From a phage: a stretch of DNA of 64,000 nt. The notes beneath the pieces are model-generated. The model ran no database searches, was not told the DNA's origin, and saw only the letters and a list, made by a program, of their open reading frames with translations. Positions 5,912-61,707 of the stretch are shown here, piece by piece (the stretch's first letter is position 1; the number at the start of each line of letters is the position of its first letter). Made by a program: the position numbers and the translations under genes. The stretch lies in NCBI GenBank assembly GCA_022979955.1, contig GCA_022979955.1_3642.1; one strand, given 5' to 3'.

Positions 5912-6172
5912 ATGCGTAAATTAAAAAATTTTGATAAAGTTGATGTTATCCTGAATAATTTTTACTACTGCAACAACAAGGCTATTTGGTGGCGTGATAG
6001 TTCCACCGATAAAGTCAAGGCGCGCTTTCTCCAAGGGCACTGGCAAGGCCGCCCAGTGATTAAAATCATGGGGCAATTGGTAGCGTTTAAAAATTGCCGC
6101 CGTGTTGATGACGTTGAGGAGATTTTAAACATTTTGCGCCACAATAATTTAAAAAATAGTGTTGACAAGTAA
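5912..6172 (+). CDS. hypothetical protein
   Basis: ORF track; GAGGAAGGAG SD. Confidence 0.5.
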   Translation: MRKLKNFDKVDVILNNFYYCNNKAIWWRDSSTDKVKARFLQGHWQGRPVIKIMGQLVAFKNCRRVDDVEEILNILRHNNLKNSVDK

Positions 6173-6189
6173 ATCTCAATAAGTATACT
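6162..6189 (+). promoter_or_regulatory. sigma70-like promoter TTGACA-N16-TATACT
   Basis: followed by leader hairpin GGCGGGAAAACTTCCCGCC then SD. Confidence 0.5.
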
Positions 6190-6246
6190 TAAACACACAG
6201 GCGGGAAAACTTCCCGCCACTAACAAAGAAAATAGGAGAAAATATC

Positions 6247-6870
6247 ATGACCACCGTTAACATTACCGCAGGTTACAATTTATCTTTCGACGTGCTGACC
6301 GACGAACAAAAAGAAAAAGCTATTGAAATGGTCCGCGAAAGAGAAGAACACAGTGGGGATAACTTTTTTGCAGAAAGTGTAATTGAATACTATAAAGAAT
6401 ATGTTTTTCCAGAGTACGGGCTTGAAGATACAAAAGTACATTGGTCAGGCTTTTGGTGCCAGGGTGACGGCGCGTCAATCAGTGCGGAAAACGTGGATTT
6501 AGAAAAATTCTTGCGTAAAGTCAAGTCTCTGACTAAATTCCGCTCAATTCGTCGCTTGTTCGGCACAATGCACGATGGCGAACTATCCGCAAGTGTTGAG
6601 CGTGATCCATATAGCCGCTATAGTCACGAAAACACTGTAAGCGGGTACATCGATACTACATGGCTAGACCTGACCGCCAAACAAGAAAATAAAGTGGAAG
6701 ATCTGGAAGAGCTGATCACCGAGACGGTACGGGAGCTATCCCGCAAGGTTTACGTAGACCTGGAGGAGGCCTATCTAGAACAGTTCACTACCGAAAACCT
6801 GATCGGCCTTATTGAGGCCAATGATTGGCGGTTTGATGTAGATGAATATGGAGAGATGAGTTTTTCATAA
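6247..6870 (+). CDS. hypothetical acidic protein (207 aa)
   Basis: ORF track; AATAGGAGAAAATATC-ATG. Confidence 0.6.
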   Translation: MTTVNITAGYNLSFDVLTDEQKEKAIEMVREREEHSGDNFFAESVIEYYKEYVFPEYGLEDTKVHWSGFWCQGDGASISAENVDLEKFLRKVKSLTKFRSIRRLFGTMHDGELSASVERDPYSRYSHENTVSGYIDTTWLDLTAKQENKVEDLEELITETVRELSRKVYVDLEEAYLEQFTTENLIGLIEANDWRFDVDEYGEMSFS

Positions 6871-6959
6871 ATAAAGTGTTGCAATAATCTAAAAACCTGC
6901 TATATTAAAACTCAAGGGGCAAGACGTTTGCCCCCACACAAAACAAAGAGGAAAACATC

Positions 6960-7340
6960 ATGAAAAACACTACTAAAGCTATTGACACCGTCATGTTTAA
7001 CCTAGTTACCTTTCGCGAGGATATGAAAGATCTTCCACGTGAAACAGTGTGCGATCACATTGAAAACTATCGCAAACTAATCAAAGAGTTGCCTTTAAAA
7101 CGTGATCAGTATGCGGCTAACGCCATGCTTAATGCCATGATCAAAAAGATGATCCAGTGTGATTTAACTCTGGCCTATGACTATGCGGGTGGTCGTTTTG
7201 CAGTATACAATCAGCCCGTGCCCGGTATGGGCACCACCGAAGAATTGCACGCGTTAAATCTGAAGCAAGATGTATGGGATAACATGCCCCGCGTGGTGGT
7301 GTGGGCAGAAAGCGGAAAGATTTACGGCGATAATTTTTAA
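6960..7340 (+). CDS. hypothetical protein
   Basis: ORF track; AAAGAGGAAAACATC-ATG. Confidence 0.55.
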   Translation: MKNTTKAIDTVMFNLVTFREDMKDLPRETVCDHIENYRKLIKELPLKRDQYAANAMLNAMIKKMIQCDLTLAYDYAGGRFAVYNQPVPGMGTTEELHALNLKQDVWDNMPRVVVWAESGKIYGDNF

Positions 7341-7404
7341 TCAGGTAACAGGCGGCATATTTGCCGCCTTATTGTTAAACAGAACTGCAAAAGAGGTACA
7401 TAGA

Positions 7405-7776
7405 ATGGAATTTATTATTTTGGCTGTAGTAGTTGCCTTGTTCAACGCCTGGATCGCTGGCAAGATAGGTAGATCCGCTTTTCTATGGTTTGTTATATCT
7501 ATTTTCCTGGGAGTGGTTGCAACTATTGTATTGGTTATCCTTGCAATTGTTGACAAGGGCGATAATAGAAAGGGTAAAGTGTTTTCCGACCTGTATGACG
7601 CACAAACGTTTGTCAACGCCTATTATAGTGATCTTCCAGTCTCCCTACGCTGCAGCCTGGCACAACAGGTTTTTGATGAGGCTAAAACCAGAGACCAAGC
7701 CCATGAGATATGTTTAACTGAGGCGGATCGCCTATTTGAGAGGAATAGAAAATATGTGGACCAGCCGTTTAAATAA
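7405..7776 (+). CDS. hypothetical membrane protein (2 predicted TM)
   Basis: ORF 7270..7776 trimmed to ATG at 7405 with AAGAGG SD. Confidence 0.5.
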   Translation: MEFIILAVVVALFNAWIAGKIGRSAFLWFVISIFLGVVATIVLVILAIVDKGDNRKGKVFSDLYDAQTFVNAYYSDLPVSLRCSLAQQVFDEAKTRDQAHEICLTEADRLFERNRKYVDQPFK

Positions 7777-7999
7777 CGCCACGTTAATTAATCCCTTTAG
7801 TGAAGATTTGAAGCCAGCCGCCTGGCGTGACGGATTCAATAACGAACGCTTTATTTTCAGGCCTGATCTTGAGGAATTTTATAACAATGGATCGAACAAC
7901 AGCGGAGATAATTTTTCTTGTGATGTGCGTGGTGATGGTACTCCTGGGGGCCATTGTAAACCACGTCACTACTACCAGGAGGAAAGGGGGAGACGATGA
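7754..7999 (+). CDS. hypothetical protein (uncertain; alternative overlapping micro-ORFs at about 7887 and 7996 encode TM peptides)
   Basis: ORF track trimmed to ATG with GAGAGG SD; low-complexity C-terminus. Confidence 0.25.
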   Translation: MWTSRLNNATLINPFSEDLKPAAWRDGFNNERFIFRPDLEEFYNNGSNNSGDNFSCDVRGDGTPGGHCKPRHYYQEERGRR

Positions 8000-8107
8000 C
8001 AACCAAGGATAAGCCCCGCACCGATAAGGTGCGCCAGGTTATGGTATGGCTTGAGATCATCGCCCTTGAAATATTGTTAGGGGTAGGAATGTACTTTATT
8101 GCTATAA

Positions 8108-8137
8108 GTAACTGATAACGCCCCCGATCATGGGGGC
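8108..8137 (+). terminator. rho-independent terminator
   Basis: GCCCCCGATCATGGGGGC hairpin followed by T-rich run. Confidence 0.5.
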
Positions 8138-8254
8138 TTAACTTTTTCAAAAAATTTTTCTTCCAGGGTGTTGCAATCTGGTCCGCAATATGGATAATAA
8201 CAATCAACGGGGAAACATCCCCACCAACACAAAAACCAGAAAGGAGAAACAAAA

Positions 8255-8455
8255 ATGAGCAACAATATCCGCGTTATTAACTTCAAAAAAGAAGAAAAAA
8301 TTGCCGTGCTGATTGACGGTCAAGAAATATTCAAGGGGTATTATGAAGATCATCAAACGGCGATTAGTATCACTCGCGTGATTGGTTACCATAATTTTTA
8401 CCCTCAAGGCGCTGAGGCAGCAGTAAAACGAATTAAAGAGATTGTAGGCCTGTAA
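8255..8455 (+). CDS. hypothetical protein
   Basis: ORF track; AAAGGAGAAACAAAA-ATG; promoter TTGCAA..GATAAT upstream. Confidence 0.5.
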   Translation: MSNNIRVINFKKEEKIAVLIDGQEIFKGYYEDHQTAISITRVIGYHNFYPQGAEAAVKRIKEIVGL

Positions 8456-8503
8456 AATTTATTTTTAGATGGCCTTGACTCCAGGGCCATCAATAAAGTA
8501 AAT
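8456..8503 (+). promoter_or_regulatory. conserved palindromic cassette, copy 3
   Basis: identical core to copy 2. Confidence 0.45.
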
Positions 8504-8546
8504 TTAAACCCTGTTAAAATAATCAGTGCAAAAAGGAGTAATGATC

Positions 8547-8846
8547 ATGTTTATCCAGGCTAATAATCTTTATTTCTTTGATGGTCAGATCGTAGACGGC
8601 GTGGAGGTGGAAATCACCGGGTGCCCTGGCGGTCAGGTTATGACTTTTCGGAATAATGCCTTTGATGATTCTCATATCGTTATGAGAATGGAAGTTAGTA
8701 AGCTGGATGACAAGAAAACACTTATCGACTATTCCGTCAAAGATCATCCAGACTACCACATGATCTATGGTGATTTGTGCATTGTTGACCGTGACAAGGT
8801 GAACGGCATTGTTATAGCCATTGTGAACGATGTTTTCTCTGAATAA
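8547..8846 (+). CDS. hypothetical protein
   Basis: ORF 8526..8846 (GTG) trimmed to ATG at 8547 with AAAGGAG SD. Confidence 0.5.
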   Translation: MFIQANNLYFFDGQIVDGVEVEITGCPGGQVMTFRNNAFDDSHIVMRMEVSKLDDKKTLIDYSVKDHPDYHMIYGDLCIVDRDKVNGIVIAIVNDVFSE

Positions 8847-9069
8847 TTCCGGCAAATGATGCAAAATAAGGCCCCTAGCAGGGCCTGCAGCGATATAATC
8901 ACATAAAGGCTATGCGGTTGCATGTCCTTTATTATTTTAGCGTTACAGCGGCCCCAAGGCGCTTAAAAAAATTTTTAAAGAAGTACTTGCATCAAGCCCT
9001 ACAATATGGATAATAGGACGTGTCAGGGGGAGGCCCCAATCATTAACCGGATAGATAGGAGTTAAAACC

Positions 9070-9354
9070 ATGGCTATTGTTACCGCTGGCGATGTAGTAG
9101 AAATGGAAGCAAAATACTTAAAAGCGGGTATGCATATCCTACGCAACGATCTTGAACTGGTCCTGACAATGGTTGACTATAACCCAGGGCAAGATTATCC
9201 AAGTGTTGACTACTTTTTTGAGTATGTTGATGAAGAGTTGAAAGAGGATGAGGCCTATTGCGGTGAGTTCTGCAACTTCTTTTGTCCTGATGAGGTTGTA
9301 AAGGTTATCTATCAACCTGGCGTAGCTTTCCCGCTGCACGCTATCAATAAATAA
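9070..9354 (+). CDS. hypothetical acidic protein
   Basis: ORF track; ATAGGAG SD. Confidence 0.5.
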   Translation: MAIVTAGDVVEMEAKYLKAGMHILRNDLELVLTMVDYNPGQDYPSVDYFFEYVDEELKEDEAYCGEFCNFFCPDEVVKVIYQPGVAFPLHAINK

Positions 9355-9358
9355 ACCT

Positions 9359-9382
9359 GGCGGGGCCGAAAAGGCCCCCGCC
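9359..9382 (+). terminator. terminator-like GC hairpin (GGCGGGGCC-GAAAA-GGCCCCCGCC)
   Basis: perfect stem read directly; weak U tract. Confidence 0.4.
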
Positions 9383-9416
9383 TGAAATTATGAAAAATAA
9401 AAAGAGGCAAACTATC

Positions 9417-9650
9417 ATGATGGAACAAATTAAACGCGCTGAGGCTATTAATGGCAATGTGATCTATTTTGTCAGCAAAAACGAAAAAGGCGTACCCTAT
9501 GCGGCGGTAATAGTACAGCCTGACGGCGATTATTGGTGCACTGTGTACGGCGCTTATTCTTTTGGGCGTCCAGTGCATGATAAAATTTTGAAAGTAGCGA
9601 ACCCTACCGGGAAAAATATTACAGCAGAAAAATTTTTTGAAAATAGTTGA
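9417..9650 (+). CDS. hypothetical protein
   Basis: ORF 9390..9650 trimmed to ATG at 9417 with AAGAGG SD. Confidence 0.45.
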   Translation: MMEQIKRAEAINGNVIYFVSKNEKGVPYAAVIVQPDGDYWCTVYGAYSFGRPVHDKILKVANPTGKNITAEKFFENS

Positions 9651-9725
9651 CATGACCATATAAAACTGTAGTATATAAATCAAAGGGGGCAACAAGCCCC
9701 ACCAACCACAAAGAGGATAAAAATC

Positions 9726-9905
9726 ATGGCTATTATTGCAAAGACTGAGATCGTAGGCTTAGATTCTATTCTCCTCGCATATGAGGAAGCTATAGAAATG
9801 TATGTAGTTTCCTATGGTGAGTATATCCGTGAATATAAATCTATTGATCTGGCTTTTGAATGTTATATTCGCCAGGTAAATAAAGCATATGATGATTATC
9901 GTTAA
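9726..9905 (+). CDS. hypothetical protein (59 aa)
   Basis: promoter TTGACA at about 9643, leader hairpin, AAGAGGATAAAAATC-ATG; just below track cut-off. Confidence 0.45.
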   Translation: MAIIAKTEIVGLDSILLAYEEAIEMYVVSYGEYIREYKSIDLAFECYIRQVNKAYDDYR

Positions 9906-9996
9906 AATAGTTTGACAACAATTACAAATCGGGTAGAATGTATTTCGTAGGGGAGACAAGCGCCCCATTAAACGCAACAGGAAGAGGATAAACACC

Positions 9997-10242
9997 ATGA
10001 AAAGCAATAAAGGTTATAACGGTTACAAAAACAAAACTCATTGGAATGTAAGCCTTTGGATTAATAACGATGAGTCATTGTACCGGTTGGCCCAAGGCTT
10101 TATTAACGCTAATGCTAATCGTAATGATGCGGCGCGGGATATGATGCTTTTTCTGGAGCTAACCGGACAAGATAAGACCCCGGACGGCTTCAAGTACAGC
10201 ACTACGGCGATCCGTTCCGCGATGGTTGGAATGAAACACTAA
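9997..10242 (+). CDS. hypothetical protein
   Basis: ORF track; promoter TTGACA..TAGAAT; GAAGAGGATAAACACC-ATG. Confidence 0.5.
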   Translation: MKSNKGYNGYKNKTHWNVSLWINNDESLYRLAQGFINANANRNDAARDMMLFLELTGQDKTPDGFKYSTTAIRSAMVGMKH

Positions 10243-10319
10243 AAGCACATAGCCGCCTTACCCTGGGGCTGTAGTAGCGGCCCCATGAATAAGGTTACTA
10301 ACAGAAGAGAATAAACACC

Positions 10320-10424
10320 ATGAAACAGAAATTAATCGATGCAGTGATCTTGGTTATTGCCCTTGGTATTGGCCTGATTGCAACCATGTCTAATATGATC
10401 TTGTCTTCCAACGGTATCGGGTGA
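10320..10424 (+). CDS. small hydrophobic peptide ORF (34 aa)
   Basis: AGAAGAGAATAAACACC-ATG leader as in neighbouring genes. Confidence 0.3.
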   Translation: MKQKLIDAVILVIALGIGLIATMSNMILSSNGIG

Positions 10425-10433
10425 GGTTGGCAA

Positions 10434-10649
10434 ATGATCACTAACAAAACAGGCAAAACAGAATTTTTACGCGGCTTGCAAATAGGTAAGCCTGAGATCT
10501 GGCATTGCACTAAAACACCACGCGACGAAATGAAAGACTTTACCGCCACGCTGAAGCGGGTAAAGATATCCATTACGCAGAAAAAAGCCTTGATAGTGGT
10601 GGAAGGTGAGATCCCTCAAGCCGTTGTTATAGTTGAGCGTACAGCATAG
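10434..10649 (+). CDS. hypothetical protein
   Basis: ORF track; GGTGAGG SD. Confidence 0.45.
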   Translation: MITNKTGKTEFLRGLQIGKPEIWHCTKTPRDEMKDFTATLKRVKISITQKKALIVVEGEIPQAVVIVERTA

Positions 10650-30649: not shown

Positions 30650-31123
30650 CTAGTCCACCTGAACCCAACCGCCTGATACTTTTTTAAACATTCTTTGGTT
30701 ATCACTGCCTCGGAACGGTTTCTTGGTTGGTAAATCTTTTACATACTTACCGTCAATGATGATATCAGCCAGTTTAAGAACATCACTAGAGATATGGTCA
30801 AATGTGAACCCAGTATATACAAGAATAGTTTTCTTGTCACCAAATTTTTCCTTAATTTTCTCCATCAGGCTAATAATATCTGGCTCATTATAGTATGCTA
30901 AGGGTTCTCCACCCAGTAGAGAGATACCGCACACAGACGGGTTATCTAAATCTGACAAGATTTTTTGCAAATCTTCTTCAGTGAACTCTCTCCCCTTATC
31001 CTTTGACCAAAATGCCTGATTAAAGCAACCAGGGCAAGCGTGTGGGCACCCAGATACCCACAAGGCAGTTCTAATACCTGGCCCTTCGATGTAAGATATT
31101 TCTGTATATCCGGCAATGTTCAT
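30650..31123 (-). CDS. nrdG: anaerobic ribonucleotide reductase activating protein (radical SAM)
   Basis: CPHACPGCFN radical-SAM cysteine motif; size about 157 aa; adjacent to nrdD. Confidence 0.7.
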   Translation of the reverse strand: MNIAGYTEISYIEGPGIRTALWVSGCPHACPGCFNQAFWSKDKGREFTEEDLQKILSDLDNPSVCGISLLGGEPLAYYNEPDIISLMEKIKEKFGDKKTILVYTGFTFDHISSDVLKLADIIIDGKYVKDLPTKKPFRGSDNQRMFKKVSGGWVQVD

Positions 31124-31236
31124 AGATACTCCGCATCACATTTGGGGCAATGCCAAATAAAATCGTCCAGTGCCTTGCACCAACGAAGATTGCAATGACA
31201 ACCACACTTGCAAATTTTATAAATACCTGATGACAT
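31120..31236 (-). CDS. Cys-rich micro-protein (38 aa, zinc-ribbon-like)
   Basis: AGGAGGTG SD; CKCGCHC...HCPKC; stop overlaps nrdG ATG. Confidence 0.35.
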   Translation of the reverse strand: MSSGIYKICKCGCHCNLRWCKALDDFIWHCPKCDAEYL

Positions 31237-31299
31237 ACTGCACCTCCTAGCTCGCTGTGTGTCAATAATATGCCACATCCTTGTGGCTTTTGTCAAGAA

Positions 31300-32292
31300 T
31301 CAGCAACCACAACTTCCGTAGTGCTTAACTCGCTCGATAACTTCCGCTTGCTTACCTTTATTGTAAGGACGGGAGTTAGGACTGGAAAGATATCCAGACA
31401 CTCTTCGGATCACTGAGATATATTGTTCATCGTGGCATCCACACGCAGGGCAGCAGAACCCTTTAGCTGTTGCACTGAACTCACCAGAGAAACCGCACTT
31501 AAGACATTTATCCACAGGCTGGTTAATACCAAAATACATAATGTGTTTATATCCGAAATCAACAAGAGCTTCCAAAGCATCTAAGTTGTTTTTCAGATTT
31601 GGTGTCTCTATGTACCCAATGTTGCCACCAGAGGAGATCATAGCAAAACCTTCCTCATACTTCCACTTATCAAAAGGCGAGCTATTTATCCATACTGGCT
31701 GATGGAAACTGTTGGTGAGATATTCATGCTCATGCTTCAACACTTCAGGATATTCACGATCCAGACAGGTTGCAGCTTTATAGCATAGACTCTCAGAAGG
31801 GGTGCCGTACAAGCTAAACGCTAGTCTACTTTCCTTCTTGTATCGCTCACAAGCATCTCTCATGTGCTGAAGGATTCCAAGAGCTAAAGCCTTGTCACCC
31901 TCTCTGCCCAAAATCTGACAGGTTTCATACACACCAATATACCCAATACTGATGGAAGCGTACCCGTCATAGAAGAGTTTATCAATACTCTCTTCAGGAT
32001 CCAGGCGAGCAAGAGCGCCTTCACACCACATGATAGGGTTCTGCCCTGCCTTGGTGCCTTTCAGACGGTTAACCCTTACAAGGTGAGCTTCATATGCCAA
32101 ATCCAGATACTCGTCAAGAACGGCAAAGAAATCAACACCTTCCGTCTTAGCTTTTGCCGCAATCATTGGTAGGTTAAGGCTAACAACACCCAAGTTGAAT
32201 CTGCCGAGGTATTTCTCCTCGCCTGTTACAGGGTCGCTATATTTCGATAAGAAACTTCTACACATTATGTTCAGGGTGGTTCGCAAGTCCAC
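31300..32292 (-). CDS. nrdD: anaerobic ribonucleoside-triphosphate reductase, C-terminal exon (glycyl-radical domain)
   Basis: GRFNLGVVSLNLP, Zn-site cysteines CLKCG...CPACGC, glycyl radical motif RVSGY; exon boundary upstream of 32292 not resolved. Confidence 0.7.
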   Translation of the reverse strand: MDLRTTLNIMCRSFLSKYSDPVTGEEKYLGRFNLGVVSLNLPMIAAKAKTEGVDFFAVLDEYLDLAYEAHLVRVNRLKGTKAGQNPIMWCEGALARLDPEESIDKLFYDGYASISIGYIGVYETCQILGREGDKALALGILQHMRDACERYKKESRLAFSLYGTPSESLCYKAATCLDREYPEVLKHEHEYLTNSFHQPVWINSSPFDKWKYEEGFAMISSGGNIGYIETPNLKNNLDALEALVDFGYKHIMYFGINQPVDKCLKCGFSGEFSATAKGFCCPACGCHDEQYISVIRRVSGYLSSPNSRPYNKGKQAEVIERVKHYGSCGC

Positions 32293-33015
32293 CCCCGCAC
32301 CTTTACGTGCTGCTGCATGTTCCCATGCAGATCAGACTATATCTTCACACTTAGTGTGTCTACCATTTCGAGTGTCATCGGCTTACACCCTACACCGCTA
32401 CATTCATCACGGTTAGTCGTTAGGCATTTCGTAACAGAACTCGTAATCATAGTTATTAGGCGCACCACGTTTCAGGATAGCAGATATTCTTTTTCTATCC
32501 ACTCCTAAAACATCAGCACAACATCTCAGACTTTTAAAGTGGAAAACCTCACCAGTTAATTTGTTGGTGGCTTTCACACCGTGGCATCTTGTGTAAAAAG
32601 CATAACAGTTGTTGTTGTATCCTTCTTGCGTATTGTCTGGGCAAGCTCCCCACTCAAGGTTGTATACACTGTTATCTTTCCTGTTGTCCCCTTTGTGCTT
32701 AACATAGGGTAAATTGTCTGGATTTGGTAAGAACGCTTCAGCAACAAGTCTGTGAACCCTTAGGCAAACAGTCTTTTTGTTCTTGCGTATCCTAACAAGA
32801 CGGTAACCTGTGTTTATCTCTTCCCACGAATGAATAATTCTTTCATTTTCGTAGCGGGTGCAATAAACATTGCCCATCTCGTCAATTTCATAACCTTCAA
32901 AATCACGAATTTGTTTTCTCATTTCAGGACTCCTCTTGGTCAGGAGTTCTGTTACGTTTAGCACGGGATTGTCCGTTCTGGAGTTTCCCCGTTTAGATAG
33001 ATTTTACATGAGCAG
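32293..33015 (-). mobile_element. putative group I intron in nrdD carrying an HNH homing endonuclease gene
   Basis: nrdD reading frame interrupted; free-standing HNH ORF with own start inside. Confidence 0.5.
32413..32964 (-). CDS. HNH homing endonuclease
   Basis: HRLVAEAFLPNPDNLPYVKHKGDNRKDNSVYNLEW pattern typical of phage HNH endonucleases. Confidence 0.7.
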   Translation of the reverse strand: MLNVTELLTKRSPEMRKQIRDFEGYEIDEMGNVYCTRYENERIIHSWEEINTGYRLVRIRKNKKTVCLRVHRLVAEAFLPNPDNLPYVKHKGDNRKDNSVYNLEWGACPDNTQEGYNNNCYAFYTRCHGVKATNKLTGEVFHFKSLRCCADVLGVDRKRISAILKRGAPNNYDYEFCYEMPND

Positions 33016-33270
33016 TTATAGTTTACCCATGCTCGTTACTTTACCATCTGTCGATCCTGTCACTTTACGATTTAGTGGAACAGAGACAAAGTCAGGATAA
33101 ATCCGCTCTGCAGAGCATTCCAGAGCTAATCGTTTCAAATCATAGTTAGGATCTCCAGGGTTCATGTTGACACCATCTTCTAGGAAGAACAGCACTTTAG
33201 GGAACACAGGTGTGATACGTTCTTCACCAAGACCCATTTTGTGGACTTTCAAGTAGTTTTTGGTAATCAT
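33016..33270 (-). CDS. nrdD: probable middle exon of nrdD
   Basis: segment PVFPKVLFFLEDGVNMNPGDPNYDL..CSAERIYPDF resembles class III RNR core; boundaries not resolved. Confidence 0.4.
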   Translation of the reverse strand: MITKNYLKVHKMGLGEERITPVFPKVLFFLEDGVNMNPGDPNYDLKRLALECSAERIYPDFVSVPLNRKVTGSTDGKVTSMGKL

Positions 33271-33578
33271 TCTACCAAATACTGAGGTGTCCAGACCTAA
33301 ACTTAATGTGATAAAAGGGGTTTGCGGTCCCCACCCTTATGTTTCCACAAGGCCAGACTATCTCTTGCCTGAAATCACACCGTGTGATTCTTAATCAGAC
33401 CTCTGCGTTTCGGAATCTTCCATAATCCCTACACCAAAAGGTTAGTCGTTACAACCGCCTCACTCCTTGTGAAGCTAGTCACGGGATTGGCATAGCTTGA
33501 GCCTTAGCGTTCCCCGTTAGCCAGCGATCAGCTGACCCCTCATACTGAGGTTAGCAGAGTTTTAAAACGGCCAGCTTG
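33271..33578 (-). other. putative ORF-less group I intron (or spacer) within nrdD
   Basis: about 300 nt GC-balanced, stop-rich sequence between two nrdD-like reading frames. Confidence 0.35.
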
Positions 33579-34442
33579 TTAACCGTTGACAGAAGTTAAC
33601 GTATTGATTTGATAGAGCAAAGTCTGCATGCTGTCAAATACGTCTTTATCTGTCATTTGCATTGCAACAGTCTCAGCATCTGGCAACCAATGTTCCTGGC
33701 AAAATTTAAGGTTCTTCTCATAGGTCGCTTCAGCATACTGTGCCAGATAATGATCAATATGGCTCATAGTCTGACCCCCATATTGAGCACTAGCTACTGC
33801 ACTAGAGATTTGGCTAAGGATTGTTGTTGCAACCCCTATTGACTTAGGCTTACTGACATGGGCGTTACCAATGTTGAATCCGTTTTCCAACATATCTGGA
33901 TAATTTACCAAACAACAGTTTGTTAACGGACTAATCAAGTAGTCAAGATCATGCACATGGATGAAGCCTCTATTGTGCTCTTCTGAGACACGGTCTGGCA
34001 GGATCTGTGTTGATGCAAGGTGTTTGCTAAGGATGCCTGCAAGCAGGTCACGATGAGTGTGTACATGATTGGTAGGCTTATTTGCGTTTTCTTTTGTAAA
34101 TTCATCACAAGTGCGATCCAAGAAGCCACTAATATCTGCAAGCAGTTTTCCACCTGCCTCTCTGTTATTATCTCTTGTCTGCCTATACTGGATGTATTCT
34201 CTGGCTGCACATTTTAAACCCATATCCATAAAAGCGTCTTCAACAAGGGTATGGATATTTTCTACAGAGATCGTGCACTGGTCGGTTGGTAGATTGTTAG
34301 CAACAACTTCATTAACCGCGCAGGCGATCCGGTAAGCTTCTTCTTCAGTATGTCCAGACTCAAGTAAGGCGGACTCTGCCGCCTTGATCACCTTAATCCC
34401 GTTATATACCTCTTCTCTACCGTCCCGTTTTACAACTTTCAC
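33579..34442 (-). CDS. nrdD: anaerobic ribonucleoside-triphosphate reductase, N-terminal exon (ATP-cone)
   Basis: N-terminal ATP-cone-like MKVVKRDGREEVYNGIKV; continues into class III RNR-like sequence. Confidence 0.7.
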   Translation of the reverse strand: MKVVKRDGREEVYNGIKVIKAAESALLESGHTEEEAYRIACAVNEVVANNLPTDQCTISVENIHTLVEDAFMDMGLKCAAREYIQYRQTRDNNREAGGKLLADISGFLDRTCDEFTKENANKPTNHVHTHRDLLAGILSKHLASTQILPDRVSEEHNRGFIHVHDLDYLISPLTNCCLVNYPDMLENGFNIGNAHVSKPKSIGVATTILSQISSAVASAQYGGQTMSHIDHYLAQYAEATYEKNLKFCQEHWLPDAETVAMQMTDKDVFDSMQTLLYQINTLTSVNG

Positions 34443-34717
34443 TTTTTCTCTCCAAAACCATTCTTAACAAAAGAGATGAAATCGTCGGCACCGCCTATAT
34501 GGACACTTTCAAGATTGCTTTCTAAGAAGATCTGCGGCAACGTTCTGGGTACGATTGGACTGCACTTCTCAATAAGCTCTTCTTTTGTGTAACCCTCGCC
34601 AAGTGTCTTATACACAAAAGGTATGCCTTTGCTGACTGCAAATTCTTTTGCTCTTACACAATGTGGGCAGTTATCTTTACCGTAAATAATAAAGAAAAAA
34701 GATTTTTCACAGCTCAT
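34439..34717 (-). CDS. glutaredoxin-like redoxin
   Basis: CPHC active site, TLPQIF motif; sits between nrdB and nrdD. Confidence 0.6.
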   Translation of the reverse strand: MSCEKSFFFIIYGKDNCPHCVRAKEFAVSKGIPFVYKTLGEGYTKEELIEKCSPIVPRTLPQIFLESNLESVHIGGADDFISFVKNGFGEKK

Positions 34718-57361: not shown

Positions 57362-57436
57362 GCCCTGTTAGCTTAGTGGATAAAGCAGCGGCCTTCTAAG
57401 CCGTTGACACTGGTTCGAGTCCAGTACGGGGTGCCA
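57362..57436 (+). tRNA. tRNA-Arg (anticodon UCU)
   Basis: hand-folded cloverleaf: acceptor GCCCTGT/ACGGGGT, anticodon loop CTTCTAA, T-loop TTCGAGT, 3' CCA encoded. Confidence 0.7.
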
Positions 57437-57440
57437 AATT

Positions 57441-57527
57441 GGGGAGTTATCCCGTAGAGGTAGCGGTGTAGACTGTAAATCTATTGTCATTGCGACTCGG
57501 GTGGTTCGACTCCACCACTCCCCACCA
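57441..57527 (+). tRNA. tRNA-Tyr (anticodon GUA), type II long variable arm
   Basis: acceptor GGGGAGT/ACTCCCC, anticodon loop CTGTAAA, T-arm GGTGG-TTCGACT-CCACC, CCA encoded. Confidence 0.7.
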
Positions 57528-57641
57528 AATTTATATTTTTAGATGCGTAAATAATACAGATAATGGCATTGATATTTATCGTCGTTTATACTAGTCACTA
57601 ACTGCTCGAAAATCAGTGTCATTATCAGTATAATTTATAAA

Positions 57642-57732
57642 GGAGGGTAGGGAGCAATGGTGCTCAAGCGGTCTTGAAAACCGTCCCATTGAGGATGACT
57701 CGATGATGGTTCGATTCCATTACTCTCCGCCA
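57642..57732 (+). tRNA. tRNA-Ser (anticodon UGA), type II
   Basis: acceptor GGAGGGT/ACTCTCC, anticodon loop CTTGAAA, long variable arm, T-loop TTCGATT, CCA encoded. Confidence 0.65.
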
Positions 57733-57830
57733 CATTGTTGACCTTGTAATTAAGCGAAAGCCGGAAGCAGAACCGGATTATCAAATGTTACAGTCGTCAT
57801 CGCCGACTAGCAACATGGTCAACATACTGA

Positions 57831-57927
57831 GCTAGGTAAGCCCTTTGGCAAGGGCGAGGATTTTTAATCCTGAAAATAGACGAGGTAGTCGTTGAATACA
57901 TAGGTGGTTCGATTCCACCGCCTAGCA
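57831..57927 (+). tRNA. atypical tRNA-like gene (anticodon loop TTTTTAA, nominal Lys-UUU) with about 30-nt extra arm
   Basis: acceptor GCTAGGT/GCCTAGC, D-arm GCCC-TTTGGCAA-GGGC, T-arm GGTGG-TTCGATT-CCACC; 4-bp anticodon stem; no encoded CCA. Confidence 0.35.
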
Positions 57928-57933
57928 CCTTTT

Positions 57934-58009
57934 GCTGATGTAGCACAATTGGCAGTGCAATTGATTTGTAATCAATAGGTTGCAGGTTCAAGTCCTGCCA
58001 TCAGCACCA
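57934..58009 (+). tRNA. tRNA-Thr (anticodon UGU)
   Basis: acceptor GCTGATG/CATCAGC, anticodon stem ATTGA/TCAAT with loop TTTGTAA, T-arm GCAGG-TTCAAGT-CCTGC, CCA encoded. Confidence 0.75.
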
Positions 58010-58010
58010 T

Positions 58011-58085
58011 GGCCCTGTAGCTGGAAGGTTCAAGCAAGCGACTCATAATCGCCAGATGGTGGTTCAATTCCACCCAGGGCCACCA
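58011..58085 (+). tRNA. tRNA with CAU anticodon (Met, or Ile if lysidine-modified)
   Basis: acceptor GGCCCTG/CAGGGCC, anticodon loop CTCATAA, T-arm GGTGG-TTCAATT-CCACC, CCA encoded. Confidence 0.65.
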
Positions 58086-58096
58086 AATTATAAATA

Positions 58097-58163
58097 CTCC
58101 GCGTAGCTCAGCTTGGTAGAGCGCCTGATTTGGGATCAGGAGGTCGAGTGTTCGAATCACTCC
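58097..58163 (+). tRNA. tRNA-Pro (anticodon UGG)
   Basis: acceptor CTCCGCG/CGTGGAG, anticodon stem CCTGA/TCAGG with loop TTTGGGA, T-loop TTCGAAT, CCA encoded. Confidence 0.7.
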
Positions 58164-58219
58164 GTGGAGACCACCTTTAGTTATACTTTAAACATATACA
58201 AACGAAAGGAACCTTTAAA

Positions 58220-58993: not shown

Positions 58994-59277
58994 GAGTTGC
59001 TACACTGTTTATTGCGTGCTTGTTATTATGTGGGTGTGCAACCAGTGTTGAGAAAGAATACAAGATTGACCCTCCAGATGTAGGAAGGTTGATTGTTAAA
59101 CCCCCAGAAGGTGCCATGAAACCACCTGCTAAAGCTATGCCTTTGAAGAAAGGTGCGCCAGATGCAGTGAACTCTGGCATTATGAGGGATAATAATCTGT
59201 CTTGTAGCAATGATAGAGCTAAATTGATCATTTTGCAAGACTATATTAGAACACTGTTTCCAAAGGAGAGAGGTTAA
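58990..59277 (+). CDS. putative o-spanin (Rz1-like lipoprotein)
   Basis: signal peptide with lipobox LLCGC; Pro-rich mature region; ATGA overlap with upstream gene. Confidence 0.5.
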   Translation: MRVATLFIACLLLCGCATSVEKEYKIDPPDVGRLIVKPPEGAMKPPAKAMPLKKGAPDAVNSGIMRDNNLSCSNDRAKLIILQDYIRTLFPKERG

Positions 59278-59705
59278 TGTCTAAGATTTACGGACCGTGT
59301 TCTGAAAAGCAGAAGATGATCCTAGAAAACGATGCAGATATTTTGGTAATCGGCGGTGCCGCAGGGTCTGGCAAGTCGTTCCTCTTGCAGTTGATGCCAC
59401 TTAAAATTATTGATGACCCCCACAGCTCTGTGGTTATGTTCCGAAGAACAACCCCACAGTTGGAAGGTGAGGGTGGACTATGGCCTAAAGCAGTAGCTAT
59501 TTATAGTGATCTGCCTGAAAACATTAAGCCAAAGTTCAGAGAGAAGGATCATAAGTTCATTTTTCCACGGTTTGATCCGAACACTGGCAAGTGGGATAGG
59601 AGCAAAAAGGGAGCTGTTGTAAAATACTGCCACATGGAGTATGTACAAGATAAGCTTAACCATCAAGGGCTTGAGTACACCATGGTTTGCTTCGATGAGG
59701 GTTAA
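59277..59705 (+). CDS. terL: terminase large subunit, N-terminal exon (ATPase Walker A/B)
   Basis: Walker A VIGGAAGSGKS, Walker B-like MVCFDEG immediately before stop; C-terminal part resumes at about 60619. Confidence 0.6.
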   Translation: MSKIYGPCSEKQKMILENDADILVIGGAAGSGKSFLLQLMPLKIIDDPHSSVVMFRRTTPQLEGEGGLWPKAVAIYSDLPENIKPKFREKDHKFIFPRFDPNTGKWDRSKKGAVVKYCHMEYVQDKLNHQGLEYTMVCFDEG

Positions 59706-60640
59706 TTTGTAGCTCTCGTAAAACCTCCCTAATTGCGGGGAAATCTTTATTATTGACACCACCAACCTGTTATGGTAACATAATAGAGGCTTCGAAGAGA
59801 GATCGAAGGTATGGTAATAGTGTGTTAATTTAGATAATCCGCAGCGAAGCATCCGAGAGGATGAACGTTCAACGACTAGTCGAAAGACGTAGAATCAAGC
59901 GATTCGAAACGGGAGGGTGAATGTGTAATACTAAAAAATGTATGGATTGTCAAAGAGTTCTACCTATTGATGATTTCTTTTTATCATCTAAGAGCAAGGA
60001 TGGATACTCAGGTACATGCAAGGAATGCTATATGTACTACAGGAAGGGTGGATCTCGTAAAAACAAAAATATGGTTAAGAGAGATGACGCAGCATTGTTT
60101 ATTCAAGACTTGCTGAAGAAAGGTGAACTTTTTGAATGCAAATCTTGTCATGAAAGTATGCTCGCTGATAGTTTTTACACAAAACGTGACTATGGTAAAG
60201 TATACCTGGTTACGAACAGGTGTAAGATGTGTGAAAAGTTTTATCAGATTGAGAAAAAATTTCACATAACAAAAGATGAATACTATCGTCTACTCTCAGA
60301 TCAAGATCATAAGTGTGCCATTTGTAGAATATCTCTTGATGAGTATAGGACGCAAGGGTACAGAGATTTCTTTTGTGTTGATCATGACCATAAAACTGGC
60401 GCTGTAAGAGGGTTGCTTTGTGATAAATGCAACAGAGCTTTAGGTTTCTTCCAAGAGGATGAGGAAACTATTCTTAGAGCGGCAGAGTATTTGCACATTC
60501 ATAAGATATAGTCTGGTCTGCATGGAGACATGCAGCTGCCTGAAAATGGCGGGGCAAGACTAGCGACCTTGCCCGAACATAAACGACACAATTCGAATGG
60601 GAGCAGATAGACTACCTGATGTCTCGTTTGCGATCTCAGT
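59706..60640 (+). mobile_element. putative group I intron in terL carrying an HNH homing endonuclease gene
   Basis: terL frame interrupted right after Walker B; structured-looking flanks; free-standing HNH ORF with own SD; boundaries approximate. Confidence 0.5.
59921..60511 (+). CDS. HNH homing endonuclease (endonuclease VII-type motif)
   Basis: CVDHDHKTGAVRGLLCDKCNRALG motif plus N-terminal Cys-rich region; GGGAGGGTGA SD. Confidence 0.7.
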   Translation: MCNTKKCMDCQRVLPIDDFFLSSKSKDGYSGTCKECYMYYRKGGSRKNKNMVKRDDAALFIQDLLKKGELFECKSCHESMLADSFYTKRDYGKVYLVTNRCKMCEKFYQIEKKFHITKDEYYRLLSDQDHKCAICRISLDEYRTQGYRDFFCVDHDHKTGAVRGLLCDKCNRALGFFQEDEETILRAAEYLHIHKI

Positions 60641-61707
60641 CAAAGTATCCATCAAGGATGGTTATCAGCTGTAACCCTGATTCAGAACACATGCTTGCCA
60701 AACTGGTTAGATGGTGGTTGGACGATGAAGGGTATCCAGATCCGGAGAAATGTGGTAAGAAAAGATATTTTATCCGACGCGACGGTGAATTTATTTGGGG
60801 AGACTCTAAGGAAGAGTTGATAGAGAAATACACCACGGTTAACGGACTGGGTGTAGAGATCAAGCCAAGACCGTTGTCATTCTCGTTCATAGGCGCAACA
60901 ATATTTGATAATCCTGTCTGTTTGAGAGACAACCCAGAATACCTTGCTTTCCTCGAAGGTCTGCCAGAGCTGGAAAAAGCTCAGCTTCTCCATGGTAACT
61001 GGTTTGCAAAGCCTGAGGGTGCAAACTATTTTCAAAGATCTTTCCTTCGTGATGCCGATAGAGTACCCCTTGGATCAGTATCTTGCAGGGCATGGGATAA
61101 GGCAGGAACCGAGAGAACTTCTGGCAATAAATTTCCTGACTTTACTGCCAGTATTAAGGTAAGTAAAGATAGCGACGGCTTTTATTACCTGTCAGGGGAT
61201 TATTGTCCTGAAAACGTGGATGACGGGAGGTATTCCACAGGTCTGGAAGGCAAGTTCTGTAAAAAGGCTGGTGAACGAGATGTGATCATCAGGAAACAGG
61301 CGCAGTTTGATGGTGATGATTGCATAATCGTATTCTCTGTGGACCCTGGTCAGGCAGGTAAGAGTGAGTTCTTAACCTCATCCAGATCCTTGCTCGCCGA
61401 AGGGTTCAGGGTTGAAGAAGACCCAATGCCTTCCAACAAATCTAAACTGACAAGGTTCTCACCTTTTGCCAATCTTGCACAACAAGGGATGGTGAGGATT
61501 GTAAAATCCAGTTTCCATCCTGATACTCTGGAAGCATTTCTGACTGAACTTGAAAAATTCAACGGGGAAAGATCAACATTTAACAGAAAAGACGACTGGG
61601 CAGACTGTGTAGCTTCTGCGATTAATTTCCTGGAGAAAGAGGAGGTAGCACTTCCTTGTGTGATTCCATCAATCTCATCACCTTCTATGTTCAAGCGTTT
61701 TATCTAA
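60619..61707 (+). CDS. terL: terminase large subunit, C-terminal exon (nuclease domain); true exon start unresolved
   Basis: continues terminase after the intron (ISCNPD segment near start); size and position before portal. Confidence 0.55.
   Translation: MSRLRSQSKYPSRMVISCNPDSEHMLAKLVRWWLDDEGYPDPEKCGKKRYFIRRDGEFIWGDSKEELIEKYTTVNGLGVEIKPRPLSFSFIGATIFDNPVCLRDNPEYLAFLEGLPELEKAQLLHGNWFAKPEGANYFQRSFLRDADRVPLGSVSCRAWDKAGTERTSGNKFPDFTASIKVSKDSDGFYYLSGDYCPENVDDGRYSTGLEGKFCKKAGERDVIIRKQAQFDGDDCIIVFSVDPGQAGKSEFLTSSRSLLAEGFRVEEDPMPSNKSKLTRFSPFANLAQQGMVRIVKSSFHPDTLEAFLTELEKFNGERSTFNRKDDWADCVASAINFLEKEEVALPCVIPSISSPSMFKRFI

Follow-up and report, generated by a model that had tools for sequence, protein, structure and literature searches.

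The nrdD gene of phage T4 (sunY) contains a group I intron, as a sequence-only reading of the DNA studied here had correctly stated, though that intron lies at a different site from those described below. The nrdE gene of Staphylococcus phage Twort contains two group I introns at conserved residues, and their splicing has been shown experimentally (as summarised in PMC3653736). In phage CB7, which belongs to the same subfamily as the phage analysed here, HNH-bearing introns were shown by RT-PCR to splice, and one HNH-associated insertion did not splice (PMC7344957). A different arrangement is found in Aeromonas phage Aeh1, where NrdA is split by mobE and the fragments assemble after translation (PMC3653736).

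We analysed the nrdD locus in a 64-kb window, meaning the whole stretch of phage DNA under study, whose source phage is a Vequintavirus (rV5-like coliphage). The sequence-only reading had proposed that nrdD is doubly interrupted by group I introns, one of them without an ORF. This proposal is supported by restoration of the reading frame upon excision, by the intron helices and by matches to the Rfam group I model RF00028. A literature search returned no paper describing nrdD introns of Vequintavirus; the rV5 paper mentions terL introns only.

Results

The nrdD exons and their predicted product

Coordinates of the locus are collected in Table 1. The three minus-strand NrdD ORFs given by the sequence-only reading (33579..34442, 33016..33270 and 31300..32292) are exact and have colinear Pfam NRDD matches. 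The gaps, put at about 300 and about 720 nt, measure 308 and 723 nt from ORF to ORF, with true inserts of 257 and 762 nt. The placing of the pieces in three reading frames has to be corrected to two: intron 1 (257 nt) alone changes the frame, whereas intron 2, at 762 nt (3 x 254), keeps it, so that the HNH ORF lies in one frame with exons 2 and 3. Intron-less alleles of the same genus fix the boundaries to the base: phage naswa is without both introns, and intron 2 is missing at exactly the same point in RudolfGeigy, naswa, SophiaRose and EmilHeitz.

Table 1. Features of the nrdD locus. Positions are those of the window; a slash within a sequence marks the splice junction, and a slash between coordinates separates paired strands.
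Feature	Position	Strand	Basis or detail
Glutaredoxin gene	34439..34717	-	Directly upstream of nrdD; ORF list, Pfam
nrdD exon 1, codons 1-287	34442..33582	-	ORF, Pfam; 3' boundary from intron-less naswa allele
Intron 1, group I, 257 nt	33581..33325	-	Missing from naswa at exactly that point
Intron 1 P1	33566..33587	-	Exon AACGGU (33587..33582) x IGS GCCGUU (33571..33566)
Intron 1 P3	5' strand 33559..33554; 3' strand 33406..33401	-	CUCUGC x GCAGAG
Intron 1 extra hairpins after P3 5' strand	hpA 33550-46/33542-38; hpB 33536-31/33525-20	-
Intron 1 P4	33517..33512	-	J3/4 and P4 come after hpA/hpB
Intron 1 catalytic core	33335..33447	-	P7, P7.1, P7.2, P3', P8/P8a, J8/7, P9
Intron 1 P7; P8/P8a; P9	33447-43/33360-56; 33400-395/33372-67; 33352-46/33341-35	-
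nrdD exon 2, codons 288-387	33324..33025	-	Pfam NRDD; boundaries from intron-less alleles
Intron 2, group I, T4 td/nrdD (IA2-like) type, 762 nt	33024..32263	-	Boundaries from intron-less alleles
Intron 2 P6a stem	32430..32956	-	CGUAACAGAACUC (32956..32944) x GAGUUCUGUUACG (32442..32430), 13/13 pairs
HNH homing endonuclease gene, I-HmuI-like, 169 aa	32922..32413	-	PHROG 59, PDB 1U3E
Site 2 in intron-less alleles			ATGGGT/TGCCGGAG (RudolfGeigy or naswa nrdD)
nrdD exon 3, codons 388-707 and stop	32262..31300	-	Pfam; alignment to 1H78
38-aa conserved ORF	31236..31120	-	Downstream of nrdD; PHROG 20137
nrdG (activase)	31123..30650	-	Downstream of nrdD; Pfam

Exon 1 begins with a GTG at 34442 that overlaps the stop codon of the glutaredoxin gene and is the start annotated for nrdD in navn and naswa. 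It encodes an ATP-cone (Pfam, E 2.2e-14) and the N-terminal part of NRDD (profile positions 1-154), and ends in GTC AAC GGT (...S V N G). Exon 2 extends from CAA ACC CCT TTT (Q T P F) to AGC ATG GGT (S M G) and is colinear with T4 NrdD residues 191-289; its ORF portion matches Pfam NRDD positions 180-263 (E 3.5e-14). The first codon of exon 3, TGT, specifies Cys388, with T4 Cys290 at the aligned position, and the exon continues with matches to NRDD positions 263-562 and Gly_radical (E 2.5e-24), the Zn-ribbon cysteines CLKC and CPAC, and the RVSGY glycyl-radical motif. This motif had already been noticed in the 31300..32292 ORF; its radical glycine is Gly677 of the spliced protein (codon 31395..31393).

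When both inserts are excised, a 707-aa NrdD ORF results. The predicted protein aligns with T4 NrdD (PDB 1H78) with an E value of 8.6e-167 and without gaps at either junction; the junctions are likewise gap-free against PDB 9D3X, another anaerobic ribonucleoside-triphosphate reductase of solved structure, and protein identity to the uninterrupted NrdD of naswa is 97.6%. All three pieces are colinear with the T4 and naswa proteins, including the middle one, on whose derivation from NrdD the sequence-only reading had staked its proposal and which aligns as genuine NrdD. The predicted protein has the ATP-cone, NRDD barrel, catalytic cysteine, Zn-ribbon and C-terminal glycyl-radical motif of a class III ribonucleotide reductase. 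We put the probability at about 0.93 that nrdD is a normal and functional class III gene with two mobile group I introns in it.

If nrdD were instead a pseudogene in decay, split by the insertions and with its pieces never rejoined, the phage would be reliant on nrdAB only. This would account for the division into three ORFs, separated by in-frame stops, which many GenBank records list as separate genes, and nrdAB is indeed intact and adjoins nrdD (ORF list). However, the exons contain neither frameshifts nor stops, the match to naswa NrdD after excision is close, the catalytic cysteine, Zn-ribbon and glycyl-radical motifs are intact, the ribozyme helices of the inserts are kept through compensatory changes, and nrdG is retained. 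We regard decay as extremely improbable. Downstream of nrdD (30650..31236), the window lacks the free-standing endonuclease gene that naswa, navn, JEP1 and SophiaRose have between nrdD and nrdG.

The NrdD fragments might instead be translated separately and assembled after translation, for which Aeh1 nrdA provides a precedent among phage ribonucleotide reductases (PMC3653736) and to which the unspliced HNH-associated insertion of CB7 lends some plausibility (PMC7344957). Against this, neither a start codon nor a Shine-Dalgarno sequence is found where exon 2 (Gln288) and exon 3 (Cys388) truly begin, and the middle ORF has its ATG 18 codons into exon 2. Both breaks fall within tightly conserved motifs, NG/QTPF at site 1 and MG/CRSF at site 2, the latter directly before the catalytic cysteine codon. 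Both inserts also contain complete group I cores, whereas mobE of Aeh1 is without such a core. Assembly from separate polypeptides consequently receives hardly any credence from us, and splicing of a single transcript is the preferred reading. An intein was considered and rejected, as in-frame stops occur three codons into intron 2 and intron 1 introduces a frameshift.

Detection of the introns with Rfam

An Rfam scan of the whole window at the gathering threshold returned tRNAs only. In E-value mode, RF00028 (gathering score 50 bits) gave hits in both nrdD gaps, on the correct strand, and no others across the 4 kb that were scanned. The covariance-model scan that had been suggested as a check thus found both gaps, but with scores below the gathering score: 35.3 bits for intron 2, with the 3' half alone aligned, and 28.9 bits for intron 1 (E 1.3e-4 in the 4-kb scan). 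As a positive control, the T4 nrdD intron gave 105 bits. The sub-threshold score of intron 2 is due to the approximately 500-nt ORF inside P6a, which splits the core; ORF-less homologues at the same site score above 50 bits (70.6 for phi92, 75 for L012 and 70.5 for L039). Homologues of intron 1 score 27-33 bits, and here the low score arises because an atypical P3-P4 insertion makes Rfam misplace P3. The P3 placement chosen by Rfam, which uses the 3' strand of hpB, was rejected, since in the variants no more than about 3 bp would form and covariation does not support it.

Intron 2 and its putative homing endonuclease

The exon preceding intron 2 ends in U (33025) and the intron in a terminal G (omegaG, 32263); excision produces the junction GGT/TGT and restores the host frame. 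P1 is formed by AUGGGU/GCUCAU with 6 of 6 pairs and a U.G pair at the splice site, and the core helices P3-P8, P4-P6 and P7 could all be located with full complementarity. The P6a stem encloses the endonuclease ORF, whose ATG is preceded by GAGGAG and whose start lies in the P6a loop. Its last 10 or so codons overlap P6a', P6' and J6/7, and the TAA stop falls within the 5' strand of P7.

That the larger gap encodes an HNH endonuclease, as the sequence-only reading had it, is borne out by a 169-aa product matching PHROG 59 (E 2.8e-32) and, over its full length, I-HmuI (PDB 1U3E, E 1.8e-7; residues 3-166 against 4-172 of 174). The identification was made through PHROGs and PDB, as Pfam alone stays below cutoff (HNH_3, 19.8 bits against 24.8; I-HmuI_NUMOD-like, for the C-terminal NUMOD/helix-turn-helix DNA-binding module, 20 bits against 27). 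The protein keeps the equivalents of I-HmuI His75, Asn87 and Asn96 and has Lys at the position of Asp74, reportedly a metal-binding residue according to the I-HmuI structure paper. Given this Lys and the sub-cutoff HNH_3 match, the endonuclease may have reduced activity or none.

At site 2, the 3' exon has 11 differences from the intron-less alleles within its first 30 nt, against an overall divergence of 4.8-6.6%. This flank is common to all intron-bearing alleles, and phi92 shares its first 14 nt. Such a divergent 3' flank is as expected if co-conversion had accompanied the spread of the intron. The hyper-divergent flank, together with the sporadic distribution of the intron, points indirectly to possible site-specific cleavage of the intron-less allele.

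Intron 1, an ORF-less intron with additional hairpins

Intron 1 follows an exon ending in U (33582) and ends in a terminal G (omegaG, 33325), and its excision restores the host frame at the junction GGT/CAA. Its minus strand contains no ORF of at least 40 aa (ORF list). The MFE z-score is -3.77. P1 has 6 of 6 pairs with a U.G pair at the splice site and is kept or extended in homologues; J8/7 is AAGAGA. The 15-mer spanning J8/7 and P7' (AAGAGATAGTCTGGC) was found in at least 120 viral contigs, and a 16-mer of the intron (GGTTGTAACGACTAAC) retrieved a single true homologue, besides two matches in coding DNA that are due to chance.

Covariation in intron 1 was assessed by per-sequence helix checks, by hand and by script, because the MAFFT alignment misaligned the central P7-P3' region between subfamilies. 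All five diverged sequences have complete pairing in P3, hpA, hpB and P7 despite differing letters, and in four of the five pairing is also complete, again with different letters, in P4, P6a, P8 and P9. Examples of P3 are CUCUGC/GCAGAG, CUCUCC/GGAGAG, CCGCGU/GCGCGG and AUACCU/AGGUAU, and pairing of P3, hpA and hpB is kept with different sequences in JEP1, L012, L022 and L102. All diverged homologues that were examined have the two hairpins, and these homologues include introns of other genes and of different nrdD sites.

Where the J3/4 junction of a group I intron usually measures 3 nt, intron 1 has about 40 nt of extra hairpins. This peculiarity, together with the 28.9-bit score against RF00028 and the lack of an endonuclease gene, could mean that intron 2 alone works and that intron 1 is a crippled relic whose P3-P4 insertion blocks splicing and inactivates nrdD. 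However, hpA and hpB have been conserved by compensatory changes in all diverged homologues examined, which argues that the hairpins belong to the functional fold. Moreover, the nrdD genes of the BASEL phages were annotated as joins by their curators, that of RudolfGeigy covering intron 1, and yeast aI5beta is a precedent for a P3-P4 insertion (PMC2396411). A non-splicing intron 1 is in our view very unlikely, and we retain the reading in which both introns are functional. It is a speculative idea, and on balance a rather unlikely one, that intron 1 may represent an undescribed phage group I subclass, with hpA/hpB before J3/4-P4, systematically missed by Rfam and spread over several nrdD sites and into further genes of rV5/phi92-like phages and of other gut phages. 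If this were true, nrdD of this phage group would be a hot spot for introns, which would occupy at least six different sites and number up to five in one gene.

Distribution of the introns among related phages

All four intron combinations occur among phages whose flanks are about 94-97% identical. Both introns are present in navn, 241Ecol014PP and JEP1, intron 1 only in RudolfGeigy, intron 2 only in phiWec191 and YP-6 (matched span 3542 nt, i.e., 3799 minus 257), and neither in naswa. The architecture of navn and 241Ecol014PP is identical to that of the window, at 96-97% identity. JEP1 and EmilHeitz have a 797-nt variant of intron 1 with an HNH ORF in P8, whereas intron 1 of the window is ORF-less; JEP1 has ORFs in both nrdD introns. 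A metagenomic relative (contig IMGVR_UViG_3300045988_157310) has five introns in nrdD. An assembly artefact was dismissed, as the same architecture is found in many independent isolates.

The two-intron architecture is already in GenBank, in identical or richer form, and is an ordinary feature of this phage group. The description of the window's nrdD as a notable intron load was overstated, since JEP1 and the five-intron metagenomic relative carry the same number or more, and Twort nrdE is a precedent (PMC3653736).

Discussion

We infer that nrdD is spliced, that the HNH endonuclease is active and that homing takes place at this locus. The gene would be transcribed as a single pre-mRNA in which both introns adopt the fold of a group I ribozyme. 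Guanosine would attack after the U closing exon 1 (33582) and the U closing exon 2 (33025), and ligation of the exons after the terminal Gs of the introns (33325 and 32263) would yield the mRNA for the 707-aa NrdD. Intron 2, of the T4 td/nrdD-like lineage, would express the I-HmuI-like HNH enzyme from the ORF looped out of P6a. In a mixed infection this enzyme would nick or cut an intron-less nrdD, and repair would copy the intron with some flanking exon, i.e., homing. Intron 1 may be a derivative that has lost its ORF, or a passively persisting ORF-less form, and it could hitch-hike on conversion tracts because it is only 300 nt from intron 2.

For annotation, three nrdD fragments and a "hypothetical" or HNH gene become one joined CDS with an intron-encoded endonuclease. 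The true nrdD start is the GTG at 34442, which takes in the ATP-cone; this is annotated wrongly in several deposited relatives. With four combinations in nearly identical phages, the nrdD locus is a convenient natural series for homing and co-conversion. The two-intron nrdD is a further instance of ribonucleotide reductase being targeted, in its most conserved codons, by homing-endonuclease introns, and leaves current understanding unchanged.

Among known systems, I-HmuI, from the DNA polymerase intron of SPO1, is likewise intron-encoded, is colinear with the HNH protein over its full length and shares the HNH His and both Asn residues. The two differ in their low identity, in the Lys for Asp74, and in the predicted target, nrdD instead of DNA polymerase. 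The nrdE of Twort resembles the window's nrdD in having one intron with an HNH homing endonuclease and one ORF-less intron (PMC3653736), but it is a class Ib gene of a phage with a Gram-positive host, with splicing established by experiment there and deduced for the window's nrdD.

The T4 nrdD intron is in the same host gene and of the same lineage as intron 2. The two have an identical internal guide sequence (GCUCAU), a very similar 5' segment (CUCAUGUAAAAUCU..CUAAA.CGGG.AAAC) and a J8/7-P7-P9 core that is 79% identical over 118 nt, and both are without P2 and with P7.1/P7.2 and P9.1/P9.2. The T4 intron, however, interrupts codon Tyr180, which places it 32 nt upstream of site 1 and some 109 codons upstream of site 2, and its endonuclease is the GIY-YIG enzyme I-TevII, encoded downstream of P9, whereas intron 2 has an HNH gene in P6a. 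Phage phi92 (Justusliebigvirus), whose nrdD is annotated in GenBank as a "spliced variant", is without an intron at site 1. Its nrdD intron is a 279-nt, ORF-less form, in which the P6a stem closes a short loop, and is located at the same site as intron 2 (..AGCATGGGT / TGTAGAAGTTTCTT..), with 89% identity over the non-coding parts and the same helices.

Removal of two group I introns restores nrdD

The window derives from a Vequintavirus (rV5-like coliphage), and its 3.8-kb nrdD region, matched by 304 phage records, shares 96 to 97% identity with Escherichia phages 241Ecol014PP and navn. The minus-strand gene order is nrdB-grx-nrdD-small ORF-nrdG. The sequence-only reading had described an nrdD distributed over three ORFs by two introns. 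All three ORFs are present as described and, the middle piece included, match the Pfam NRDD profile colinearly (positions 1-154, 180-263, and 263-562), with an additional ATP-cone in the first and a glycine-radical domain in the last. They occupy two reading frames rather than the three claimed, because 762, the length in nucleotides of the larger intron, is a multiple of three. Boundaries were set by comparison with the related phages naswa, where nrdD is uninterrupted, and RudolfGeigy, SophiaRose, and EmilHeitz, which are without the larger insert.

Features of the window and group I-like inserts of nrdD in metagenomic contig L012
Feature	Coordinates	Strand	Length	Basis or content
nrdD exon 1	34442..33582	-		comparison with relatives
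nrdD intron 1	33581..33325	-	257 nt	comparison with relatives
nrdD exon 2	33324..33025	-		comparison with relatives
nrdD intron 2	33024..32263	-	762 nt	comparison with relatives
HNH endonuclease ORF	32922..32413	-		PHROG 59, 1U3E
nrdD exon 3	32262..31300	-		comparison with relatives
tRNA gene cluster	57362..58170	+		upstream of lysis/terminase region
Terminase exon 1	59277..59702	+		ends ...GATGAGGGT
Terminase intron	59703..60585	+		sequence alone
Terminase intron ORF	59921..60511	+	196 aa	endonuclease-VII/HNH-like, stop in J8/7
Terminase exon 2	from 60586	+		in frame with ORF 60619..61707
L012 insert after ..FIHVHD	within 6113..10605		334 nt	
L012 insert after ..GSQYG			1195 nt	316-aa ORF
L012 insert at site 1			about 275 nt	
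L012 insert at site 2			about 253 nt	
L012 insert after ..LYGTP			319 nt	

Exact excision of both introns restores an ORF of 707 aa, and group I helices are found in both, so the doubly interrupted interpretation was correct. The spliced product aligns with T4 NrdD (PDB 1H78; E 8.6e-167) without gaps at either junction: ...LTSVNG|QTPFITLSLG... with T4 ...LFSSNGQTPFVTITFG... at the first, and ...VTSMG|CRSFLS... with T4 ...VSPMGCRSFLS... at the second. Site 2, where intron 2 is inserted, lies immediately 5′ of the codon for the counterpart of T4 Cys290, the catalytic residue; RVSGY (Gly677) and the cysteines of the Zn-ribbon are undamaged. It is unlikely that nrdD is a pseudogene, since the exons are intact and, once joined, encode a protein with 97.6% identity to NrdD of naswa, whose gene is uninterrupted. 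An enzyme assembled from genes in pieces, like Aeh1 NrdA, is also improbable: neither a start codon nor a ribosome-binding site is present where exons 2 and 3 truly begin, and each insert contains a full ribozyme core. In-frame stops and the frameshift rule out inteins. We infer that nrdD is spliced at both introns; the closest experiment in favour of this is RT-PCR on HNH introns of the Vequintavirinae phage CB7 (PMC7344957).

In several deposited relatives (BASEL phages, 241Ecol014PP) the nrdD start is placed at an internal ATG, corresponding to window position 34229 (-), with loss of most of the ATP-cone. Starting from the GTG at position 34442 (-), which overlaps the grx stop and is annotated as the start in navn, naswa, and JEP1, the ATP-cone is complete (Pfam E 2.2e-14).

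Intron folds and the intron 2 endonuclease

Both introns have U at the 5′ exon end and G at the intron end. The Rfam group I model RF00028 matched both gaps, at 35.3 bits for intron 2 and 28.9 for intron 1, below the gathering score of 50; the T4 nrdD intron, the positive control, scored 105 bits. In intron 2 only the 3′ half aligned, because about 500 nt of coding sequence lie inside P6a. ORF-less homologues at site 2 exceed the threshold (phi92, 70.6 bits; metagenomic relatives L012 and L039, 75 and 70.5). P1 of intron 2 is AUGGGU/GCUCAU, and it, P3, P4, P5, P6, P6a (13 bp), P7, P7.1, P7.2, P8, P9, P9.1, and P9.2 are all fully complementary.

The larger gap was said to encode an HNH endonuclease, and its ORF, with GAGGAG 5′ of the ATG, matches PHROG 59 (HNH endonuclease) with an E of 2.8e-32. 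It aligns over its whole length with I-HmuI (1U3E; E 1.8e-7), keeping the equivalents of His75, Asn87, and Asn96, although Lys replaces Asp74. Its final codons and stop fall inside P6a′, P6′, J6/7, and P7. The endonuclease may be active but could also be weakened or inactive.

RF00028 covers intron 1 (P1 AACGGU/GCCGUU) end to end, and the MFE fold (z = -3.77) contains P1, P3, P4, P5, P6a, P7.1, P7.2, P8, and P9. Diverged homologues compared were a 797-nt site 1 variant in JEP1/EmilHeitz with a second HNH ORF in P8, the metagenomic L012 variant at site 1, and the more distant L022 family and L102 from other genes. P3, P4, P6a, P7, P8, and P9 are fully paired in these despite sequence differences; P3 is variously CUCUGC/GCAGAG, CUCUCC/GGAGAG, CCGCGU/GCGCGG, and AUACCU/AGGUAU. 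Unusually, the family has two hairpins between the P3 5′ strand and J3/4-P4, and these are kept by compensatory changes. Scores of only 27-33 bits in this family arise because Rfam aligns the 3′ strand of the second hairpin as P3. Insertion between P3 and P4 has a precedent in yeast aI5beta (PMC2396411).

The order P3 5′ strand, UAA, two hairpins, UAA, P4 occurs in intron 1 (window 33520..33559, -), L012, L022, L102, and L005. The insertion is bordered by a short direct repeat, GCUAAC, and its compensatory changes extend among diverged introns of different genes. A distant homologue of intron 1 (L106 1297..2359, L022, and some 11 other IMG/VR loci) shares with it the 5′ exon sequence CAACGGU and interrupts an unrelated gene (exon ending ..LLSITNG), with a GIY-YIG ORF downstream of the core.

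A third intron in the window

The large terminase gene contains a third group I intron (RF00028, 45.6 bits, E 2.2e-8), with boundaries placed by sequence inspection; this fits the published account of terL introns in rV5 (PMC3606486). The tRNA cluster has five matches at the Rfam gathering score and weaker tRNA-like sequences at 57642..57728 and 57831..57927.

Distribution and mobility

All four intron combinations occur in phages whose flanking sequences share about 94-97% identity: both introns (window, navn, 241Ecol014PP, JEP1), intron 1 only (RudolfGeigy, AlexBoehm, bov phages), intron 2 only (phiWec191, YP-6, and others, with a matched span exactly 257 nt shorter), and neither (naswa). 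Intron 1 family sequences are present in 42 records and near full-length intron 2 in 29. Within the initial 30 nt of exon 3, 11 positions are different in intron-less alleles, compared with 4.8-6.6% over the whole gene. This divergent flank is common to all intron-bearing alleles, and phi92 has its first 14 nt; co-conversion during homing would produce such a pattern.

In relatives, nrdD is separated from the 38-aa ORF/nrdG by a free-standing endonuclease gene (L003 3578..4510, L004, L005, L006); it encodes about 310 aa matching PHROG 681/559 in naswa, navn, and JEP1, and is annotated as a GIY-YIG nuclease in SophiaRose. The window is without it (31237..31299, -). Beside the insertion point, the NrdD C-terminal residues are HYGSCGC in the window versus HVGNVDC.. 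in naswa.

Comparison with known nrdD introns

The two-intron nrdD is real, rightly interpreted, and ordinary, and its architecture is already in public records. The same introns are present in navn and 241Ecol014PP, with exons annotated as fragments; in JEP1 the ORF is labelled 'HNH homing endonuclease, Phage intron', the BASEL genomes give a join across intron 1 (method in PMC8594841), and phi92 has a 'spliced variant' annotated at site 2. A literature search turned up no publication on these two introns. Among split RNR genes of phages, nrdD has been reported as the most common, and RNR genes with several introns are known (PMC3653736).

The intron load, suggested to be notable, is modest: in JEP1 each nrdD intron contains an ORF and the free-standing endonuclease gene is present too, and nrdD of L012 (IMGVR_UViG_3300045988_157310, 6113..10605) has five group I-like inserts with clean U...G junctions. 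Each of the five contains P7/J8-7-like motifs; Rfam finds only those at sites 1 and 2. Counting the T4 site as well, phage nrdD has at least six different intron positions.

The T4 nrdD (sunY) intron lies within codon Tyr180, whereas sites 1 and 2 fall between residues aligned to T4 190/191 and 289/290. Its guide is identical to that of intron 2, and its 5′ and J8/7-P7-P9 segments closely resemble it, a likeness indicating that the two introns are related. The shared internal guide is GCUCAU (window 33008..33030, -; T4 sequence L007 2400..2440), the 5′ exon hexamers are near-identical (AUGGGU and AUGAGU in T4), and about 109 codons of nrdD separate the two sites. Speculatively, this combination would be compatible with ectopic transposition into a sequence similar to the initial P1 target.
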